A DNA stretch of 64,000 nt. It comes from Candidatus Hydrogenedentota bacterium (GTDB lineage Bacteria; Hydrogenedentota; Hydrogenedentia; Hydrogenedentales; SLHB01). Position 1 is the stretch's first letter; every line of letters begins with the position of its first letter. The position numbers and the translations under genes are program-made. Location of the stretch: the NCBI GenBank assembly GCA_045863295.1, contig BTWA01000001.1, forward strand, positions 32,001 through 96,000. Direction: 5' to 3'. Shown here piece by piece: positions 9,890 to 20,178 of this stretch. The notes below the pieces were generated by a model. It saw nothing but the letters and a program-made list of their open reading frames with translations, was not told where the DNA came from and ran no database searches.

Positions 9890-10007
9890 TAACTCGGGGC
9901 TGAATTGTACCGCGTAAACTTGCTATACTCCCTCCGATTTTGTCCCCCTGGGGTACTCGATTCGCACTAAATACGCGGCTTTCCACGCCGTGACAAGGGG
10001 CTTTGCC

Positions 10008-11900
10008 ATGAGTTTTCCCATTCCAGTGAACGATTATGAGCCGCTGGTACTCGACCCGTCCCAACCGGCGCTGACGCCGGACCAGTTGGCCCACCTGCAA
10101 GGAAACGTGCAGCTCGTCCGCGACGTCATCATCTTCTACACCGCGATTGCCGGCATCAAAGGGCTCGCCGGCCACACCGGCGGCGCCTACAGCATCGTAC
10201 CGGAAGTGCTGATCGCCGATGCCTTCATGCGCGGAAGCGACAAGGTCTACCCCGCATTCTTCGACGAAGCAGGCCACCGCGTCGCGATTCAGTACGCCAT
10301 GGCGGCCTTCAACGGCCACATGCCCTTTGAAAAACTCTACCACTACCGCGAATACGGCCACGGCCTCTTTGGCCACCCGGAGTTGGAACCGGAAGAAGGC
10401 ATCATGTTCAGCTCTGGACGTCTCGGCCACCTGTGGCCGTTTGTCAATGGCGTGGCGTTGGCCCACCCCGGCAAAACCGTCTTCCTGTTCGGCAGCGACG
10501 GATCTCAAATGGAAGGCGACGACGCGGAAGCGGCCCGGCTTGCCGTAGCGCAGAAGCTGAATGTGAAACTCTGCATCGACGACAACAACGTGACCATTTC
10601 CGGTCATCCCAAGGATTATCTGCCGGGATACGACATCGGCAAGACACTCGCCGGCCACGGCCTCACCGTGGACGCGCACGACGCCGAAGATCTGGCCGCG
10701 CTTTACCAACGCATGCAAAAAGCAATGGCGACCGACGGGCCCGTCGCGCTGATTAACAAGCGCGTCATGGCGCCCGGCGTGCCCGGCATCGAAAACAACC
10801 ATGCTGGCCACGACGTGATCAAGAAAGACCACGCGGTCGCCTACCTCACCGCTCGAGGCCATACAGCGGCCGTGGACTATCTGAACAACGTCAAGGTGGA
10901 GAAGACGTCACAAACCTACCTGGGATCGTCCAAGGAAACTGCAGGCAACCGCGTGGAATTCGGCACCTACGTAAACGAAATCCTCGCGAAGATGACTCCC
11001 GAAGAGCGCAAGAGCAGCGTGATCGTCATTGACTCCGACCTCGAAGGCTCCACCGGGCTCAAAGCCATTCGCACCGCGCACCCCGATGTATGCATCAACG
11101 GCGGCGTGCAGGAACGCGGCAACTTCAGCGCGGCGGCGGGCTTCGGCTTTACGCCCGGCAAACAAGGCATCTTCAGCACCTTCTCGGCTTTCCTCGAAAT
11201 GATCGTGTCCGAGGCCACCATGGCGCGGTTGAACAAAGCCACTGCCATTTGCCACTTCTCCCATGCCGGCGTGGATGAAATCGCGGACAACACCTGCCAC
11301 TTTGGCATCAACGTATTCTTCGCCGATGCAGGTCTGGAAGACGACGACACAAAACTCTACTTCCCCGGCGATGCACTACAACTGAAAGCCCTGCTGTACA
11401 AAATCTGGAACGACCGTGGGCTTCGCTACGTGTTCACGAACCGCTCGAAGATTCCGTTTATCCTCAACGAAGACGGATCGAAATTCTACGACGGCAATTA
11501 CACATTTACTCCCGGGAAAGACGAGATCATTCGCAAAGGCACGGCGGGCTACGTCGTGTCCTATGGCGAATTGCTGTACCGGGCATTGGACGCCGTCGAG
11601 CAGGCGCGCAAAGCCGGCATCGACGTCGGCCTTATCAACAAACCGACCCTGAACGTGGTGGACGAAGAGACCACGGCCATCGCGGGCAAATCCCCGTTTG
11701 TACTCGTTGTTGAAGGACAGAATCTCAAGACCGGCCTCGGCGCGCGCTACGGCACATGGCTCATCGAACGCGGTCTCACGCCCAAGTTCGCGCGCATGGG
11801 CGTTACCAAACCCGGCTGCGGCGGTATCGAAGAACAAGTCCCCTTCCAGGGACTCGCGCCGTATGACATTCTCGAAAAGATCAAAGCGATGGGCGCGTAA
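10008..11900 (+). CDS. Transketolase-like ThDP-dependent enzyme (atypical single-chain type)
   Basis: LAGHTGGAYS, LFGHPEL, FSSGRLGHLW, ThDP-binding variant FGSDGSQMEG...DDNN, IDSDLEGSTG, GGVQERGNF, STFSAFLE. Confidence 0.85.
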   Translation: MSFPIPVNDYEPLVLDPSQPALTPDQLAHLQGNVQLVRDVIIFYTAIAGIKGLAGHTGGAYSIVPEVLIADAFMRGSDKVYPAFFDEAGHRVAIQYAMAAFNGHMPFEKLYHYREYGHGLFGHPELEPEEGIMFSSGRLGHLWPFVNGVALAHPGKTVFLFGSDGSQMEGDDAEAARLAVAQKLNVKLCIDDNNVTISGHPKDYLPGYDIGKTLAGHGLTVDAHDAEDLAALYQRMQKAMATDGPVALINKRVMAPGVPGIENNHAGHDVIKKDHAVAYLTARGHTAAVDYLNNVKVEKTSQTYLGSSKETAGNRVEFGTYVNEILAKMTPEERKSSVIVIDSDLEGSTGLKAIRTAHPDVCINGGVQERGNFSAAAGFGFTPGKQGIFSTFSAFLEMIVSEATMARLNKATAICHFSHAGVDEIADNTCHFGINVFFADAGLEDDDTKLYFPGDALQLKALLYKIWNDRGLRYVFTNRSKIPFILNEDGSKFYDGNYTFTPGKDEIIRKGTAGYVVSYGELLYRALDAVEQARKAGIDVGLINKPTLNVVDEETTAIAGKSPFVLVVEGQNLKTGLGARYGTWLIERGLTPKFARMGVTKPGCGGIEEQVPFQGLAPYDILEKIKAMGA

Positions 11901-11958
11901 GTCAACGCGAGAGCCGTATAGCAAGTATACGAGTGAGACACTTTCACCGTCACGTACG

Positions 11959-11988
11959 TCCCCTCCCGACAGGGAGGGGATTTTTTTT
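11959..11988 (+). terminator. Rho-independent terminator
   Basis: TCCCCTCCC-GACA-GGGAGGGGA-TTTTTTTT: perfect 9-bp stem and T8. Confidence 0.93.
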
Positions 11989-12056
11989 GGTAAGGCCGTT
12001 TTGACGACCCCATCTCGCTGAACAGATAAATCGAAGCCGGTTGTGGCCTTGCCTCA

Positions 12057-12222
12057 CGAGCATGCCATTGCGCCCGACCGGGAGGTTTCCCTGTTCTTGC
12101 CGCTTTCGTCCGATGCAAAGAGGAGGTCGCACATTGCCCCATACTGTCCTCTTCATTGTCGCCACGGCGGGCTTCGAAACCGCAAGCGAGCTTGCTTGGG
12201 TAAGGCGGCAGCAAGCTACCGC
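12057..12222 (+). repeat. 166-bp direct repeat, left copy (REP/REPIN-like, multi-hairpin)
   Basis: Matches 17851-18016 with 7 substitutions and no indels. Contains GCAAGC-GA-GCTTGC and GCGGCAGC-AA-GCTACCGC hairpins. Confidence 0.95.
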
Positions 12223-12692
12223 GGTCCAAAAAAAGCGCAGACTTGATGTGAGGATTGCCGCGTTGGCTTGATTCCATTCTGGTTGACTTCGCATCCTTTT
12301 TTGGCCGTTCCCTACCTTTATGTCCCGCTTGTTGCAGTTTGCAGGAGGATGTACCGAGTGGATTGGCTCGGTACGTCGGATTCAAACGAGGGGTTACAAA
12401 AATGTACACCGGCAATAACGTAAGCATTGACAATGAGTTTGGGTGTTGCTCCACGGTTGCGAGTCTGATCTTATCCGATCTTTGAGGGACTCGATTTGCG
12501 TACGCTCTAACGTTGGAAACAAAAGAAGCACATCGGTTAAACCGACTTGCGGGAAGAAATCGTACGTCAAGGCATCGGACAATTGGGGCTGCAGTAAGCT
12601 GGAATACCGATGAGAGCAAATTGATTGCAGGTTTAGACCTACGACAAAATCTACGTATACTACCTGGCTAGGCAAAAGGGGCAACTCCACAG

Positions 12693-15600
12693 ATGCAGTT
12701 TCTGAAGAATGGACCAGACGTTCCTGATCGACTGCTTCAAGATCACGAAGAAGGAAGAGTCGTCTTTTTCTGTGGTGCTGGAATTTCCTACCCGGCCGGA
12801 CTGCGAGGATTTAATTGGCTTGTTGACGAAGTGTATGGCCATTTCAACATCGTGCCCAACTCAGTTCAGGAGGCCGCAAGAAAATCGGGTAGATTCGATA
12901 TGGCAATTGGCTTATTGGAGTCGGAAGTACCTGGGGGCAGGTTAGCGGTACGGGAGGCTATCAGAAATTTCCTATTGCCAAAGTCGCTTAATCGGAAAGC
13001 CACTGAGACTCACCAAGCGCTGCTCACTTTGAGCAAGAACCGCGGCGGTGAATATCGGTTGATCACTACGAATTTCGACCGACTCTTCGAGGAATCAGCT
13101 TCACGGGATGGCCTAGAATTCGAGCGATTCGCGGCTCCAATGTTACCTATACCCAAACAAAAAAGAATCAACGGCCTAGTTTACCTTCACGGTTTGTTAC
13201 CAGCGACATCAGACACAAATGCGCTACAAAGACTGGTCATTTCGAGTGGAGATTTTGGGCTTGCGTACTTAACTGAACGTTGGGCCGCCCGGTTTGTTGG
13301 CGAGATTTTTCGTAATTTCACCGTTTGTTTTGTGGGATACAGCATAAATGATCCAGTACTTCGCTATATGATGGATGCTCTGGCCGCGGACAAGCTATTA
13401 GGCGAGGCGTCGCCTGAATTTTTCGCATTCGGCGAATATAAGATAGGTCACAGAGAAAAGGCGGAAAGCGAGTGGAAAGCGAAGAATGTTACCCCAATTC
13501 TCTATAAGTTGAATAAGGCACACTCGCTACTTCACAAAACGTTAAGCGAGTGGGCGCGTACGTATCGAGACGGGGTTCAGGGCAAGGAAAGAATTGTCTC
13601 ACAATATGCGTTGGCGATGCCGACATCCAGTACGGAGCAGGACGACTTTGTGGGGAGGATGTTGTGGGCAATAAGCGACCTGAGCGGCTCTCCTGCCAAG
13701 CATTTTGCCGAGTTTAAGCCTGCCCCGCCTCTGGATTGGCTTGAGTACTTCTATTTCAAGAGATATAGGCATGCTGATTTAATTAGATTTGGAGTTCGGC
13801 CTAATAATGACGTGGATGACAAATTAACCTTTAGCGTTGCGGAAAGACCTTGTCCATATGCTCTAGCGCCGTGGATGCGATTGCTAGGATCTGGCACTTC
13901 CGGCGCAAGTTGGGACAATATCCAACAAAACTTGGCGCGATGGCTTTCAAGGCATCTGGGAGACCCTCGATTGATTCTGTGGCTCACCAAGTATGGTGGC
14001 CACATACATCAAGAACTGGCGCGCACAATTCAGGCGGAACTTTCCAGGATTCAGAGGCTTCAGCAGAACGCGAACAGCGCTTCACTCCAGCAAATCTTGG
14101 ACGCATCTCCAAACGGAGTACCTGATGACCGTTTGTACTCAATTTGGAGAATGGTCTTGGACGGCCAAACAGCAGCCAACGGCAATCAGTTTGGTCTCTA
14201 CGATTGGTTTGGAAAATTGGCGCACAGTGGTTTGACTGCCAGCCTCCGTGTAGAGCTACGGAGGCTTCTGGCGCCGCGCGTGATGTTCAGGGCCGCATTT
14301 CATGTACCTGACAACAGTAACGCAACTCAAGGGAGGCCAGAAAAGGAAGAAATTGAATGGGACCTAGTACTGGCAACGAGACATGTTCATTCCACAATCA
14401 GTGACCATGGGAACGATGCGGCTTGGCTCAAAGTTATAGGTAACATTTATCCGGATATTTTTCCGCTACTACGAGACGCACTGGACTTGATGCGTGATCT
14501 TGGGGGGGCCGACGACAAATTCGACAGATCCTATATCGACCACCCTTCAATACCGAATCACCCTCAGAACCACAATTTTCATGATTGGACGGTATTGATA
14601 GTTCTTCTCCGAGACTCTTGGTGCGCCATTGCAAAGCAAGACATTGTACGAGCACGACGTTATGCCGAGGACTGGTTTGAAATGCCTTATCCACTATTTA
14701 AGCGACTCGCATTTTTTGCAGCGAGAAGCGAGAATGTAATTGAGAAAGAACAGGCTGTCGCGTGGATACTTTCTGACAACGGTTGGTGGCTCTGGTCAAC
14801 AGCTACTCAAAGAGAGGTTATTCGCTTACTGGCTTGGATTGGCGTCAGGCTTGAGCGGTCGGAATTGAAAAATCTGGAAAATGCGATATTGGCTGGACCC
14901 CCGAGGGAAATGTTCAAAGACGACCTTTCCGTTGAGGATTGGAATAGAATAATTGATAGGATAATTTGGCTGCGGTTAGCGAAGTTGGTAGACGCAGGAA
15001 CTCAACTTGGAACTGAAGCATTAGCCAAGTATAGAGAAATATCTGAAAGAAGATCTGAGTGGAGAATAGCTGAGGATGAACGTGACGAGTTTCCCTTTTG
15101 GCTAGGTGACGGTGATGACGGGCGAAGCTACACAGCTACTCCAATTCATCGACGAGAACTTGTGGAATGGCTAAAGCTAAATCAAACCGAAGACCATTGG
15201 GATGAAGACAATTGGCAAGAAAGGTGCAGACGAGAGTTCGGCACGACATTCTGTGCTCTCTATTCACTCTCTTGCGAAAGCCTTTGGATTGTTGATCGTT
15301 GGCGGCAGGCCATTAATGCTTGGTCAGAAGAGAGTCTGGCTTACCGGCGTTGGAGATGGGTTGGCCCCGTGCTGTGGAACGCTCCAGACGATATCCTGAT
15401 TTCGCTATCACCCGGTCTTAGTAGGTGGTTGAATCTTGTCGCAAAGAAAGGTGAGGGCGCGTCGGTTCCCTTGCTGGCCTTTTTAGCCAGAATGCTGCAT
15501 TTAGATTACGAAGAGAAAGGCGTACACAAAGATTACGTTACCCACGCCTTGAACCATCCACTCGGAAGGACAGTAGACGCGGTCATCAAGATGTGGTACC

Positions 15601-16481
15601 GCCAGGGGTTGCAAGATGACCAGTCCTTGACAAGTCCGTACCGCGAATGGTTCACAGAGATATGTGATACAAGCAACATTGCTTTTCGCAATGGCCGCGT
15701 ACATTTAGCCGTTCACACAATGACGCTTTTCCGAGTCGACGAGGATTGGTGTAAGAGCCGCTTCTTGCCTTTGTTTGACTGGAACGTAAACGAATTGGAG
15801 GCTACCGCTGTTTGGCAGGGGTTTCTTTGGTCTCCACGCATTCATCACCCATTACTGGAGGCATTTAAGCAGTCGTTCTTGGCATGTTCTCATCATTACA
15901 CGGAACTCGGAGACTTTGGTAGTCAATACGCAAGATTCCTTACCTATGTTGCCCTTGATTCGGCGGATGTGTTCTCAGAAGGCGATCTGCGTCTAGCATT
16001 TCGAGCTTTGCCGCCGCACGCAATTGCCATAGTTGCCGATACATTAGCGGAATCGCTTAAGAGTGCTGGTCCGCAAAAAGAACAACATTGGTCCAATCGA
16101 GTGTCGCCGTTCTTGAAGTCGGTTTGGCCGCAGGGAAACGAATACGCTACGAAGGACATCGTGGAGAGTTTAGCCGAACTCTGTATCGTAAGTGGTAAAA
16201 GTTTCCCCGAGGCTTTTGACCAGTTAAGGCACTGGCTGAAACCAATCAAGAATCTTCATGTTATCTGCGTGCTGCTCGTCAAGTCAGAATTGTGCAGTCG
16301 CCATCCTGCGGAGGCGTTGCAATTCTTGGCAAAGATTGTGGATCTAGAGGCTGACTGGCCACCTCAAGAGCTTGAGCAATGCCTCAATGAAATCGTGTCC
16401 GCGTCGCCAGAACTTCTTGATGCGCCCTCAGTTCGGCAAATTAGAGAGTATCTTCACCGGATGCGTGGCAGGCTCGCATAG
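12693..16481 (+). CDS. dsr1: Anti-phage defence-associated sirtuin Dsr1 (SIR2-like NADase domain plus a long C-terminal DUF4020-like region)
   Basis: MQFLKNGPDVPDRLLQDHEEGRVVFFCGAGIS, LITTNFDRLFE, LVYLHGLLP, LVISSGDFGLAYLTERWAARFV, CFVGYSINDPVLRYMMDALAAD, QDDFVGRMLWA all match the Dsr1 family as recalled. 1262 aa, and visibly more AT-rich than the flanks. Confidence 0.9.
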   Translation: MQFLKNGPDVPDRLLQDHEEGRVVFFCGAGISYPAGLRGFNWLVDEVYGHFNIVPNSVQEAARKSGRFDMAIGLLESEVPGGRLAVREAIRNFLLPKSLNRKATETHQALLTLSKNRGGEYRLITTNFDRLFEESASRDGLEFERFAAPMLPIPKQKRINGLVYLHGLLPATSDTNALQRLVISSGDFGLAYLTERWAARFVGEIFRNFTVCFVGYSINDPVLRYMMDALAADKLLGEASPEFFAFGEYKIGHREKAESEWKAKNVTPILYKLNKAHSLLHKTLSEWARTYRDGVQGKERIVSQYALAMPTSSTEQDDFVGRMLWAISDLSGSPAKHFAEFKPAPPLDWLEYFYFKRYRHADLIRFGVRPNNDVDDKLTFSVAERPCPYALAPWMRLLGSGTSGASWDNIQQNLARWLSRHLGDPRLILWLTKYGGHIHQELARTIQAELSRIQRLQQNANSASLQQILDASPNGVPDDRLYSIWRMVLDGQTAANGNQFGLYDWFGKLAHSGLTASLRVELRRLLAPRVMFRAAFHVPDNSNATQGRPEKEEIEWDLVLATRHVHSTISDHGNDAAWLKVIGNIYPDIFPLLRDALDLMRDLGGADDKFDRSYIDHPSIPNHPQNHNFHDWTVLIVLLRDSWCAIAKQDIVRARRYAEDWFEMPYPLFKRLAFFAARSENVIEKEQAVAWILSDNGWWLWSTATQREVIRLLAWIGVRLERSELKNLENAILAGPPREMFKDDLSVEDWNRIIDRIIWLRLAKLVDAGTQLGTEALAKYREISERRSEWRIAEDERDEFPFWLGDGDDGRSYTATPIHRRELVEWLKLNQTEDHWDEDNWQERCRREFGTTFCALYSLSCESLWIVDRWRQAINAWSEESLAYRRWRWVGPVLWNAPDDILISLSPGLSRWLNLVAKKGEGASVPLLAFLARMLHLDYEEKGVHKDYVTHALNHPLGRTVDAVIKMWYRQGLQDDQSLTSPYREWFTEICDTSNIAFRNGRVHLAVHTMTLFRVDEDWCKSRFLPLFDWNVNELEATAVWQGFLWSPRIHHPLLEAFKQSFLACSHHYTELGDFGSQYARFLTYVALDSADVFSEGDLRLAFRALPPHAIAIVADTLAESLKSAGPQKEQHWSNRVSPFLKSVWPQGNEYATKDIVESLAELCIVSGKSFPEAFDQLRHWLKPIKNLHVICVLLVKSELCSRHPAEALQFLAKIVDLEADWPPQELEQCLNEIVSASPELLDAPSVRQIREYLHRMRGRLA

Positions 16482-16559
16482 AGACTGACAGCGCACTATC
16501 CGCTAGCTGTTTTCACCTTTCCCATTGTGCAATTCCCGCCTATCACTTGCCTTTCGTCC

Positions 16560-16602
16560 AAAGCGGTGTCGCCGCTTGTCAGCTTTGCCACCGCACTCCA
16601 TA
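16560..16602 (+). repeat. REP-like palindromic unit
   Basis: AAAGCGGTGTCGCCGCTTGTCAGCTTTGCCACCGCACTCCATA, with GCGGTG/CACCGC arms. Same AAAGCGG...CCGCACTCCA layout as the 3' end of the 166-bp repeats. Confidence 0.65.
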
Positions 16603-16732
16603 CCAGTGGCTGGCTTCCGTGGTGGTTGGTTTCGCTTGGGTGCCGCTATTGGGCTGATGTGGGAGGAGTGGTGTGTCGCCTCATGTGCCTTCAGTGCAAC
16701 ACGCCGGGCTTGTTAATAGGAGGATAATTCCT

Positions 16733-17743
16733 ATGCCTAGCAAGCCGGAGTCGGCGTTTGATGTTTTGAAGGGGGCTTATTTGGCGGTGGAGCCGCATGT
16801 GAAGGCGCATTTGGATGCGGTGTGTGAGGCGCGGGGGAAGGAGTCTGTGCGGGTGACGCCGTTGGGTTCGCCTTGTTCGCGGGCATGGGATGACGAGTGG
16901 GTTGCGGTGGTGGAGGCGAAGGAGGCGGAACTGGCGCGGCGGATCTGCGGGGCGCGGTCGGTGTCGGGTGGGCCGTGCGAGTTGTCGCCTGACCATGCGA
17001 ATGGGCGTTGCCGGTTTCATGGCGGGTTTGATTTGTCGGGGGGGCAGCGGGGGAACCGGAATGCGGTGGTGCATGGGTTGTATGCGCGGCGGTTGATGGT
17101 ATGCGGGCCGCAGTGCGGGATGTGGGGGTCGTGTCCGGTGGCGTGTCCGGAAATCGAGGCAATGGCTCCGAAGGATCGGCCGGTGTGTCCGTTTGAGTTG
17201 GCGGAGTATAACGCGGCGTTGACGGATGGGTTGGCGGTTGCGGATGGCCGGGATATGACGAGTCCGTTGCATCAGCAGACGGCGCATGCGCTGGCGTTGC
17301 TGCAGGTGATGATGTCGCGGGCGATGGCTACGATGTCGCGGAACGGGTTGTCGCCTTTTTCGGGTGAACAGGGGGAGCAGGCAAACAACGCGATGCGTGC
17401 GTTGATGCGGATTTTTTGGGAGTACCGTCAGTTGCGGGGTTTGTTTCCGCCGTTGGGGGAGGACGAGGCGCCTAGCGAGACGAGCGCGGTGCAGCAGGCG
17501 ATGCGGATGGCGGTGGATACGGATTTGACGCCGGAAGGGCAGGGGGATTTGCAGTTTCCGGCGAATCCGCGCGCGGTGTTGCGGACGGGATTTATCAACC
17601 TGGATCCTGGGGCGGCGCTTCGCGGGCCGCGGCCGGATATGCAGGCAGTGATGCCGCGCTGGTCAAAGCAGCGGAAGGTGGAGGCTGAGAACGTGGACGA
17701 GGACGAGGCCGAGCGCGAGGAAGAGGAATTTGACCACGAATGA
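16733..17743 (+). CDS. HGGxSTG-like (phage small-terminase-associated) Cys/His-rich domain protein
   Basis: ICGARSVSGGPCELSPDHANGRCRFHGGFDLSGGQRGNRNAVVHGLYA followed by CGPQCGMWGSCPVAC...PVCPFE and an acidic tail. RBS AGGAGG before ATG 16733. Confidence 0.65.
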   Translation: MPSKPESAFDVLKGAYLAVEPHVKAHLDAVCEARGKESVRVTPLGSPCSRAWDDEWVAVVEAKEAELARRICGARSVSGGPCELSPDHANGRCRFHGGFDLSGGQRGNRNAVVHGLYARRLMVCGPQCGMWGSCPVACPEIEAMAPKDRPVCPFELAEYNAALTDGLAVADGRDMTSPLHQQTAHALALLQVMMSRAMATMSRNGLSPFSGEQGEQANNAMRALMRIFWEYRQLRGLFPPLGEDEAPSETSAVQQAMRMAVDTDLTPEGQGDLQFPANPRAVLRTGFINLDPGAALRGPRPDMQAVMPRWSKQRKVEAENVDEDEAEREEEEFDHE

Positions 17744-17758
17744 GCACGAATGGTCCAA

Positions 17759-17823
17759 CCCGGATATTTCACGACGTTGTCCCATTTATTGTGTACCAAC
17801 AGATCCATAGAACTATTGTCGAA
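17759..17823 (+). mobile_element. Left-end fragment of the MITE/IS-like element at 52225-52429
   Basis: CCCGGATATTTCACGA is identical to 52228-52243, and ungapped similarity continues (TTGTCC..ATT..TGTGTA.CAACA) for about 50 more nt. Confidence 0.6.
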
Positions 17824-17850
17824 TGCGATGTGTTGGTTGTTGCGGGGCCG

Positions 17851-18016
17851 CGAGCATGCCATTGCGCCCGACTGGGAGGTTTCCCTGTTCTTGCCGCTTT
17901 CGTCCGATGCAAAGAGGAGGTCGCACATTGCCCCATACGGTCTTCTTCATTGTCGCCACGGCGGGCTTCGAAACCGCAATCGAGCTTGCTTGGCTAGGGC
18001 GGCAACAAGCTACCGC
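17851..18016 (+). repeat. 166-bp direct repeat, right copy
   Basis: 159/166 identical to 12057-12222 (offset 5794 nt). Ends 11 nt before the xerD stop codon. Confidence 0.95.
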
Positions 18017-18027
18017 AGGCCAGAGAA

Positions 18028-18939
18028 TTATCCCCTCGGATGAAACGCTTTGTGGGCTTTGCTCAATCGATCCGTGCTGACGTGCGTGTAGATTTGCGTG
18101 GTGGCAATGTCGGCGTGGCCGAGCATTTCCTGCACGGCGCGCAAGTCGGCGCCGTTGTCGACGAGGTGCGTGGCGAACGAATGCCGCAGTGTGTGCGGCG
18201 TGACATTGCCGCGGACGTTCGCCTGTCGCGCGTAGCGTTTGACTACGCGCCATGCGCTCGTGCGGCCCATTGGCCCTTTGCGTTTCATGGAAAGAAAGAC
18301 CGTGTCGGCGCGCGTATCCATCTTCGTGCGTTGGCGGATCCAGGCGTTCAATGCTTTTACCGCCTCTTCTCCCAACGGCACGATGCGCGTCTTGGAGCCT
18401 TTTCCCGTGACGCGAACCGAACTCTCTTCCACCGATACATCGCGCAGGCGCAACGTGATGAGTTCGCTGATGCGGAGTCCGCACGAATAAAACAGTTCCA
18501 GCATTGCCGCATCGCGAACGCCTTCGGGAGTCGATCGATCCGGTGCGGCGATCATGCGATCCACTTCGCGGGTCGTCATGACATCGGGCAGGCCTTTCGT
18601 GATGCGCGGCGACTCGAACCCTTCGGTGGGGTCGCCTTTGGCGAGTCCCTCGTCGCGGACAAAGCGGTGAAACCGCCGGATAGCGCTCAAGTGCCGCATG
18701 GCCGAACGCGCGGACAAGCCCTCCTTACGCAGTGCGATGAGATGATCCAGCAAACGTTCGCGGGTTACCTGTCCGAGGTCGGTCACTCCGGCTTCGGCCA
18801 AGTGATTGAGATAGCGCTGTAAGTCGGCGGCATATGCGGCGAGTGTTTTTTCGGCCAGACCGGATTCGAAGACGGCGGCCTGCATAAACCGATCGAGGTA
18901 CGGCCCGAACGGGCTGGTGTTTTGGACATCCTTATCCAT
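18028..18939 (-). CDS. xerD: Site-specific tyrosine recombinase XerD
   Basis: GLAEKTLAAYAADL, RDAAMLELFYSCGLRISEL, VTGKGSKTRIVP, TPHTLRHSFATHLVDNGADLRAVQEMLGHADIATTQIYTHV, and C-terminal HKAFHPRG. Confidence 0.9.
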   Translation of the reverse strand: MDKDVQNTSPFGPYLDRFMQAAVFESGLAEKTLAAYAADLQRYLNHLAEAGVTDLGQVTRERLLDHLIALRKEGLSARSAMRHLSAIRRFHRFVRDEGLAKGDPTEGFESPRITKGLPDVMTTREVDRMIAAPDRSTPEGVRDAAMLELFYSCGLRISELITLRLRDVSVEESSVRVTGKGSKTRIVPLGEEAVKALNAWIRQRTKMDTRADTVFLSMKRKGPMGRTSAWRVVKRYARQANVRGNVTPHTLRHSFATHLVDNGADLRAVQEMLGHADIATTQIYTHVSTDRLSKAHKAFHPRG

Positions 18940-19083: not shown

Positions 19084-19257
19084 ATGAGCAAGCCGAAAAC
19101 AATTTCAAAACCCAAGTCACTTTTTATCAAGGAGTTGGAAACGCCGCCCGCGTTGGCGGTGACTCAGGTCACGACTTTGGCGTTGGGCGAAGAGGGCGAT
19201 TCCAGTTTTCCCATTTCGCTGCCGGTGTTGGAGTATTTGAAGGGCAAAGCTGTTTAA
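19084..19257 (+). CDS. Graspetide (plesiocin-type, TTxxxxEE) RiPP precursor peptide, 57 aa
   Basis: MSKPKTISKPKS-LFIKEL-ETPPALAVTQV-TTLALGEE-GDSSFPISLPVLEYLKGKAV. Leader and core mirror plesiocin PsnA2 (LFIEDL...TTLAIGEE). GGAG RBS; ends 12 nt before the ATP-grasp gene. Confidence 0.85.
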   Translation: MSKPKTISKPKSLFIKELETPPALAVTQVTTLALGEEGDSSFPISLPVLEYLKGKAV

Positions 19258-19269
19258 CGGCGGCCACGG

Positions 19270-20178
19270 ATGGCGGCTGTACTGATACTGGGTTCGGAGA
19301 CGGACCCGCAAGTTGAACGGGCACGGAACGGCATACGGGCGCATGGCGGTCGGTCCTACTTGTGCGATACAACCACCCTTTCGGACCATACCTGCCTATC
19401 GATTCGCGATAACCGGGTTTATCTCGGATCGCGGACCATTCCCCCCATACAGTCCGTGTATTTGCGTGGGTTGGGCGTCAGCCCGCTTGCGCCTGAATGC
19501 CGTGACGATATGCGCAGGCGGCCTTACGGCCTCCTGGCTCAGGTAGACGAGCGCCGATCCCTGTTGGGGTCGGCGCTCAAGCTTTTGGAAGCGCGAGGGG
19601 TCCGAATCGTCAATACGATCGAGGCCAATGGGCTGCATGCGTTCAAACCGTACCAGCTTGCACGGATTGCTCAGGCCGGCGTGCCGGTGCCCCCCACACT
19701 GGCCAGCGCGGATCCCGGGCTGGTCCGGCAATTCGCGCATGCTCATGGGCGCGTGGTGTATAAACCCATTGGCGGAGGCGCATTGGTGCAACCGCTGACC
19801 GCGGCGGATCTTTCGCCCGAGCGGATCGAAGCGCTTGCGTTGGCGCCGGTGCTGTTTCAGAAATGGTGCGATGGCATTTCCCTCCGCGTATATGTGGCCG
19901 GACGCAAAGCCATTGCGGCGGCCGCGATTCACTCGACCGAACTCGACTACCGGCGCAAAGAAGACGCGGTGACTCCAATTCGCCTGACGGCGGATGAACG
20001 CCGCGCCGCCATTGCCGCCGCCAAGGCCTGCGGCATGCCCTTCACGGGGGTTGACCTGATCCGAATGAAGCGCGGCTTTGTCGTGCTGGAGTGCAACCCT
20101 TCGCCCATGTTCGCCGCGTTTGAAGACAAGACCGGCTTGGATGTTTCCGGGCCGTTGGCGCGTCTTCTGCTGGCCTGA
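19270..20178 (+). CDS. ATP-grasp ligase / graspetide synthetase (PsnB-like, RimK superfamily)
   Basis: FKPYQL...AGVPVPPTLAS, VVYKPIGGGA, APVLFQKW, LRVYVAG, ELDYRR (DFR-like), FTGVDLIR, VLECNPSPMF. Directly after the TTxxxxEE peptide. Confidence 0.88.
   Translation: MAAVLILGSETDPQVERARNGIRAHGGRSYLCDTTTLSDHTCLSIRDNRVYLGSRTIPPIQSVYLRGLGVSPLAPECRDDMRRRPYGLLAQVDERRSLLGSALKLLEARGVRIVNTIEANGLHAFKPYQLARIAQAGVPVPPTLASADPGLVRQFAHAHGRVVYKPIGGGALVQPLTAADLSPERIEALALAPVLFQKWCDGISLRVYVAGRKAIAAAAIHSTELDYRRKEDAVTPIRLTADERRAAIAAAKACGMPFTGVDLIRMKRGFVVLECNPSPMFAAFEDKTGLDVSGPLARLLLA

Follow-up and report, generated by a model that had tools for sequence, protein, structure and literature searches.

The 64,000-nucleotide (nt) stretch analysed here (Candidatus Hydrogenedentota bacterium, contig BTWA01000001.1, positions 32,001 to 96,000; hereafter the window) contains dsr1, the gene for a defence-associated sirtuin, between a transketolase gene (tkt) and xerD. 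The gene is enclosed by two long direct repeats that carry a repetitive extragenic palindromic (REP) sequence and have the size of a REPIN, a doublet of inverted REPs folding as a hairpin. An earlier note on this DNA had proposed the whole repeat-bounded interval of about 5.8 kb as the unit that could be gained or lost. In a related strain, the DNA departs from the window 17 nt past the left repeat and re-enters it at 16501, which argues against that claim and suggests that the variable piece is likely dsr1 alone, exchanged inside the repeats. The genome is a short-read assembly of 6.3 Mb in 88 contigs; its other contigs are cited as C2, C3 and so on. The features of the locus are as follows.

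9990 to 11900, forward strand: transketolase gene, left flank, host backbone (Pfam Transketolase_N, Transket_pyr and Transketolase_C; GC content at third codon positions, GC3, 0.76)
11958 to 11991, forward strand: predicted intrinsic-terminator-like hairpin after the transketolase gene (10-bp stem and T run)
12057 to 12228, forward strand: left repeat copy, a decayed REPIN-sized unit (163/172 positions identical to the right copy; two full-length copies in the genome)
12172 to 12228, forward strand: REP arm of the left copy, family A (78–89% identical to dispersed copies)
12246 to 16500, forward strand: low-GC segment, likely variable between strains (447-nt leader, dsr1 and 19-nt tail; GC 0.49; metagenome run X5 leaves the window after 12245 and run X2 enters it at 16501)
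12693 to 16481, forward strand: dsr1, defence-associated sirtuin 1, 1262 amino acids, intact (NF041818, 1705 bits, cut-off 1400; PADLOC Dsr1 PDLC02183)
16557 to 16603, forward strand: single REP hairpin of a second family, family C (14 to 16 genome matches)
16733 to 17743, forward strand: HGGxSTG-domain gene, 336 amino acids (NF041373 HGG_STG, 31.9 bits, cut-off 29)
17759 to 17830, forward strand: first 72 nt of a MITE, a miniature transposable element with inverted repeats, truncated in this strain (45 to 55 genome copies)
17851 to 18022, forward strand: right repeat copy (REP arm 17966–18022; possibly with a short gapped stretch reaching about 17835)
18028 to 18939, reverse strand: xerD, a housekeeping tyrosine recombinase gene, right flank (TIGR02225, 349.6 bits, cut-off 329.6)

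The repeat pair and the DNA between its copies

The two repeats had been described as near-identical over 166 positions. Indeed, 12057–12222 and 17851–18016 agree at 159 of them, and the direct repeat extends to 172 nt with a longest perfect run of 65 nt. Between 9000 and 22000 this pair is the sole long direct-repeat family. The 6.3-Mb assembly contains two full-length copies, so the repeat is not one of many equally similar dispersed copies. The description of the repeats as REP-derived holds for the last 57 nt, which are the REP arm, whereas the first 115 nt are private to the two copies. Among 53 other genomes of the family, the REP arm alone gave matches, in 10 of them. When viral contigs were searched, neither a match to a 19-nt piece of the repeat nor a confirmed relative of the HGGxSTG protein was found. 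Six of the nine differences between the copies fall in the REP arm, and the arm ends of the two copies match different family variants.

The left copy follows the terminator-like hairpin of the transketolase gene at a distance of 65 nt, and the right copy ends 5–11 nt from the xerD stop, which lies 11 nt past 18016; both positions agree with the earlier description. The same description had the repeats enclose only Dsr1, a REP-like unit and the HGGxSTG gene. All three are present, but the MITE fragment at 17759–17830, which ends 20 nt before the right copy, had been missed. Complete members of this MITE family are about 200–260 nt long, carry terminal inverted repeats and contain internal 22-nt units whose number varies. 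No recombinase gene was found between the repeats: the interval contains two long open reading frames, neither of them a transposase or an integrase, in agreement with the earlier note, and xerD lies outside.

Dsr1 matches the NF041818 family model over its full length. Its residues G28, N127 and H166 are identical in all 60 aligned homologues (the first 60 of the 120 listed), and the motif suggests that N127 and H166 are equivalent to N133 and H171 of DSR2. Accordingly with the activity reported for the family (10.1101/2021.12.14.472415), Dsr1 is predicted to defend by NAD+ depletion. The GC3 of dsr1 and the GC content of the segment 12246–16500 are both 0.49, and the GC3 of the transketolase gene, xerD and the HGGxSTG gene ranges from 0.72 to 0.76; a foreign origin of dsr1 is supported by this composition. 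Among 133 genomes of the order, the source genome alone contains a Dsr1 over the cut-off, and the closest database relatives are 50–52% identical. The HGGxSTG gene (GC3 0.76) has four paralogues in the genome at 39–54% and is a member of a resident multi-copy family.

Two minor observations concern dsr1. One public gene call on the contig takes in just the last 370 residues of the protein, and the frame is open across all 1262. A 30-nt motif in the dsr1 leader (12377–12406) recurs at C11:85990–86019 (93%) and, more weakly, on C4 and ahead of the HGGxSTG paralogue on C26; it is possibly a promoter or operator element.

Comparison of strains

Six of 14 listed sequencing runs (X1 to X6) were examined, all as contigs; the runs holding window DNA are bioreactor and sludge metagenomes. 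In run X1, a 5748-nt contig spans 12156–17903, starting within the left copy and ending within the right one, without a difference and at a depth of 12.2 beside neighbours of 12.8 and 12.9. This contig bears on the possibility that the duplication is an assembly artefact, a suspicion to which the short-read assembly gives some ground, as do the X1 contigs that break at the repeat. Against an artefact stand this even passage across the interval, the nine differences between the copies, their distinct flanks, and run X5, which comes from another study and joins the left flank to the left copy. X1 is possibly the source of the assembly and hence not independent, and the repeat is collapsed in it into a 106-nt contig, so that X1 would not reveal a rare empty site or circle. 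We regard an artefact as very improbable.

Sample S2 (runs X2 and X5) contains a strain diverged by 1–4% from the window. A 321-nt contig of X5 (depth 5.8) matches 11975–12245 with seven differences, covering the left flank, the entire left copy and 17 further bases; of the five differences listed, four are private and one is the right-copy allele. After 12245 the contig continues with 50 unlike letters, which correspond to neither the dsr1 leader nor the xerD end and are absent from the genome of the window. A 167-nt contig of X2 (depth 3.5) has 13 unlike letters, after which it joins the window at 16501 and runs across the REP hairpin. A further contig of that run, 666 nt long, crosses the end of the HGGxSTG gene and proceeds into MITE-like letters past 17830. 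Both junctions coincide with the edges of the low-GC dsr1 segment. At the ends of this segment neither inverted ends nor a short target duplication was found; the longest shared word is 6 nt and lies off the junctions.

Variation of the tkt–xerD site between strains had been anticipated in the earlier note, and the X5 and X2 contigs bear this out. The allele in the reads is a substitution, not an empty site. Because it retains the left copy with 17 more bases before it diverges, it is not the product of a loop-out between the repeats, and dsr1 therefore likely moves alone. In runs X2, X4, X5 and X6, large parts of the flanking DNA and the HGGxSTG gene are represented, and dsr1 to a small extent. 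This poor cover was not counted as evidence, because 151-nt fragments of dsr1 occur in X2, X5 and X6 as well (depth 2–4, 0–4 differences); their samples likely contain mixed strains. X3 contains pieces, some of them of dsr1, that match the window exactly. In X5, a loose end at 16739 (depth 2) was discarded as a possible chimera.

These results can be set against the proposal that the 5.8-kb interval is a working cassette, in which RecA acting between the repeats excises, amplifies and re-integrates dsr1 together with the HGGxSTG gene. The repeats are private, direct and 95% identical with their 65-nt perfect run; defence-type cargo is found at four of the nine private-repeat loci described below; and amplification of restriction-modification (RM) systems between long direct repeats has been reported (PMC2853133). 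The sole alternative allele observed, however, is one that loop-out cannot yield. The copies moreover differ at 9/172 positions, above the 7/271 by which the strains differ at the left copy and its flanks. Neither a joint spanning the interval nor an excised 5794-bp circle, which the earlier note had proposed to look for, was found in the contigs of the six runs, where a rare one would be hidden. We consider such a working cassette rather unlikely. Given their 65-nt perfect run, the repeats could still support RecA-dependent loop-out or amplification, of which there is no sign here.

Origin of the repeat

The arm of the window repeat belongs to a dispersed family. The 25-nt core of family A has 33 matches in the genome at up to five mismatches, and the arms lie mostly in inverted doublets of 165–199 nt with unrelated middles (10 hand-picked intact doublets); the 172 nt of the window repeat fall within the range of these ten. 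A gene for a REP-associated tyrosine transposase (RAYT) is present in trans on C2 (C2:53365–54348; NF047646, 88.3 bits, cut-off 80), as the earlier note had suggested checking. It sits between two complete REPINs in direct orientation whose arm is the same as that of the window, and this locus is the REPtron of the family from which the arm in the window derives.

The window copies do not contain two inverted REPs that fold as a hairpin. Their second (left) arm is vestigial at best, since 14 and 52 of 1000 random 100-mers score equally; the trace in the left copy, at about 12030–12075, is the one matched by 14. Folding of the left copy showed no excess over shuffled sequences; for the window copies the z-scores are −0.03 and 0.75. 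Both copies share a C-A mispair in their REP stem as well as the left-arm remains. Judged by these sequence features, the window repeat is a decayed REPIN relic, and the label REPIN-like is apt. Because both copies carry the same mispair and the same left-arm remains, the duplication would postdate the decay of the arms. For the same reason, the shared decayed arms, mobilisation of the module by RAYT, as the earlier note had envisaged, is unlikely.

A related possibility is that the right copy arose as an independent local copy of the REPIN, by a RAYT-assisted hop or by gene conversion, and that dsr1 came to lie between the copies through the coincidence of a permissive intergenic site. The RAYT gene with the same REP arms would fit this, as would the distribution of the differences, which are concentrated in the REP arm, and the arm ends that match different family variants. 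Furthermore, three REPIN units on C3 have middles 80–89% identical and lie 1–5 kb apart around DNA of host GC content. Neither window copy, however, has a recognisable second arm, and the stem mispair is common to both. REP singlets have been interpreted as defunct remnants (PMC3116915), and REPtrons are described as not transposing as a unit (PMC6006769). An independent local copy is, in our judgement, unlikely.

An Rfam search of 11800–18200 gave no meaningful match. Acido-Lenti-1 belongs to another hairpin family, located beside a Y1 transposase on C20. Tandem arrays with a period of 161–166 nt were also observed at C29:5484, C37:57375, C56:323, C59:256 and C61:2439. Each of their units consists of a G+T-rich stretch and one family-A REP arm, and most of the arrays lie near contig ends.

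The closeness of the right copy to the xerD stop also raises the possibility that the repeats are recombined as att sites, either by XerD or through some integron-like activity. The enzyme is a canonical XerD, scoring 157.5 bits against the integron integrase model TIGR02249 (cut-off 265), and an XerD-type match was present in all 31 genomes searched. No dif-like match was detected in the 64-kb window at three mismatches (0.75 expected by chance), and neither repeat copy contains an attC core. In all 20 relatives compared, xerD is followed by unrelated genes, without tkt, dsr1, the HGGxSTG gene or a comparable repeat pair. Direct involvement of XerD, which had been put forward as speculative, thus finds no support in these searches, and we consider it extremely unlikely.

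Proposed order of events

We give about an even chance to the following reading: the tkt–xerD junction underwent an older insertion that duplicated its decayed REPIN, and dsr1 was later gained or replaced alone inside this slot, with the MITE clipped as well. The anatomy and the junction contigs are observed, and from them we infer the events and their order. A family-A REPIN between the transketolase terminator and the xerD stop would first have lost the pairing of its arms. A block of DNA would then have entered by break-repair or single crossover, copying about 170–190 nt of the site to both sides. Later, illegitimate recombination at 12245/12246 and 16500/16501 would have brought in or replaced the dsr1 segment, which homologous recombination in the shared flanks may now carry from strain to strain. 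Finally, the MITE would have been clipped in this strain.

Several points weigh against this order of events. Each strain junction is a single short contig from one sample, one of them with just 13 unlike letters. No contig links both junctions, nor does any place the HGGxSTG block beside tkt in that strain. The right copy is uncovered in X2, X4, X5 and X6, and the order of events is accordingly not fixed. The C3 units show that REPINs are copied locally without foreign cargo in this genome too. A one-copy empty site was not found among the 30 relatives examined, none of which is of the same genus, and in a metagenome pattern search for such a site all 16 matches were attributable to chance, at most 22 nt long.

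If an older insertion with a later exchange of dsr1 is the true history, long target duplication, described for RM genes, extends to a sirtuin defence gene, and the extension probably covers Cas9 loci in an uncultured phylum too. A dead repeat element could then mark a slot for the exchange of defence genes without a recombinase, which would be a useful but modest extension.

Comparison with known systems

The closest kind of known event is insertion with long target duplication, as described by Furuta, Abe and Kobayashi (2010, PMC2853133). Three of its four features are found here, namely long imperfect repeats, a low copy number and the lack of a transposase or integrase; the fourth, a one-copy empty site, was not found in the relatives of other genera, the metagenome matches and the run contigs examined. 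As with the RM genes of that work, a defence gene without transposase or integrase lies within long imperfect low-copy direct repeats next to gene ends, and amplification through the repeats is possible. 'Substitution' alleles, with other DNA in place of the defence gene, were also described there for RM genes. Unlike in those cases, the cargo is a predicted NAD+-depleting sirtuin and not a break-making nuclease, the duplicated target is a decayed REPIN, and the variable piece is nested inside the repeats.

With regard to the REPINs, or bacterial interspersed mosaic elements, and the RAYT REPtrons (Bertels and Rainey 2011, PMC3116915; Quentin et al. 2018, PMC6006769), the family of this genome is similar in having inverted doublets of 165–199 nt, tandem clusters and one RAYT between two complete doublets. 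The window copies differ from the REPINs of these works: they are one-armed, decayed, 5.8 kb apart, in direct orientation and without excess fold. Like DSR1 of Garb et al. (preprint 10.1101/2021.12.14.472415), the window Dsr1 is a single long SIR2-domain protein of NF041818 with conserved SIR2 residues; it differs in being only 50–52% identical to its best database relatives and in coming from a lineage where Dsr1 is otherwise rare. Finally, the duplication joints of Escherichia coli indicate that REPs can act as short homologies at duplication junctions (PMC1428787). In that report, REPs lie at only four junctions and the homology is shorter than a REP, whereas here 115 nt of non-REP DNA were duplicated too.

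Private repeats and defence genes elsewhere in the genome

The genome was compared with itself for direct repeats of at least 80 nt and at least 85% identity, 0.5–30 kb apart. Sixteen pairs were obtained, 10 of which are two-copy (private) and lie at nine loci enclosing 0.56% of the genome. Four of these nine loci have defence-type cargo: Dsr1, two Cas9 systems and a Schlafen pair. Besides the tkt–xerD interval, the loci are the following.

C6:38615–45636: Cas9-Cas1 locus (repeats of 146 nt, 88%)
C24:78599–86181: Cas9-Cas1 locus (81 nt, 99%; a family-C REP with flanks)
C8:85638–88545: ParA-like ATPase and Schlafen/AlbA_2 gene (135 nt, 92%)
Other private-repeat cargo: HGGxSTG paralogue, Y1 transposase, low-GC open reading frame, paralogue cluster and two-component pair

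The C8 pair lies inside a DUF1156 methylase island, and its second repeat copy is the first 47 codons of the gene begun by the first copy. By analogy with PMC2853133, this anatomy is that of a long target duplication. A search of 134 other genomes gave no relative of the C8 target gene. As a side observation, the HGGxSTG paralogue on C20 (C20:93477–95565) lies between two copies of its upstream region, its own start being part of the duplication.

The private-repeat loci contain two of the three Cas1 genes of the genome; the third Cas9 has no straddling repeat. In relatives, a straddling repeat was present at two of 19 Cas9 loci (41 and 54 nt); these 19 loci were taken from 38 genomes with a match, favouring longer contigs, and 10 of them have less than 5 kb on one side. 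The control xerD loci gave one straddling repeat in 20, a paralogue cluster. Crude low-GC stretches lie inside private repeat pairs in 10 of 322 cases. When defence families were chosen blind, none of four matches lay inside the pairs (N6_Mtase 0/1, AbiEii 0/3; TIR_2 and Mrr gave no match); for families chosen afterwards, four of seven did. The defence enrichment at private repeats is therefore post hoc. We also note that the 54-nt repeat is a family-A REP arm (93%), present as direct copies around a Cas9 locus in another genus (L109:6543–6596 and 12109–12162).

A wider proposal is that the lineage captures whole defence systems (Dsr1, the two Cas9-Cas1-CRISPR loci and the Schlafen pair) at REP-type hairpins, duplicating 80–280 nt of target, possibly through RAYT nicking, and that the blocks circulate from strain to strain as recombinase-free cassettes. 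We consider this improbable. If capture seeded by REP and RAYT is true, RAYT/REP systems gain a role in the turnover of defence genes. Events started by RAYT would be of much greater import, the host benefit of RAYTs being described as an open question (PMC6006769). In the literature searched, with subscription journals and supplements outside the scope, we found neither a link of RAYT or REP to the turnover of defence cassettes nor a REP-linked strand skew.

Strand skew of the HGGxSTG gene

The third codon positions of the HGGxSTG gene consist of 224 G, 65 T, 33 C and 14 A, an extreme G+T content on the coding strand. Two paralogues in the genome are C+A-rich, of the opposite sign, and the skew of homologues elsewhere is reversed at four of six loci. 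Among the 30 most skewed 800-nt stretches of the genome, nine lie at most 1 kb from a REP, against 1.4% of random ones. A skew of 0.25 is attained at four of the nine private-repeat loci (0.15 expected). Downstream of single-orientation REP sites in the genome, the skew is positive at 20 of 26 (mean 0.13, p 0.0005; five of the sites are copies of one larger repeat). Such a relation was not found for 16 sites from a different family of the order (mean 0.02; 9 of 14 measurable sites). An origin of the G+T skew in RAYT nicks was dropped, since the REP sites of the other family lack skew and the homologues elsewhere are mostly reversed.

The sites of extreme G+T versus A+C skew are 16601–17600 in the window, C20:94189–95163, C23:17276–18268 and C22:71300–72800. 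Apart from these, an ATP-grasp (RimK-like) gene is located upstream of xerD, at 19084–20178 of the window.

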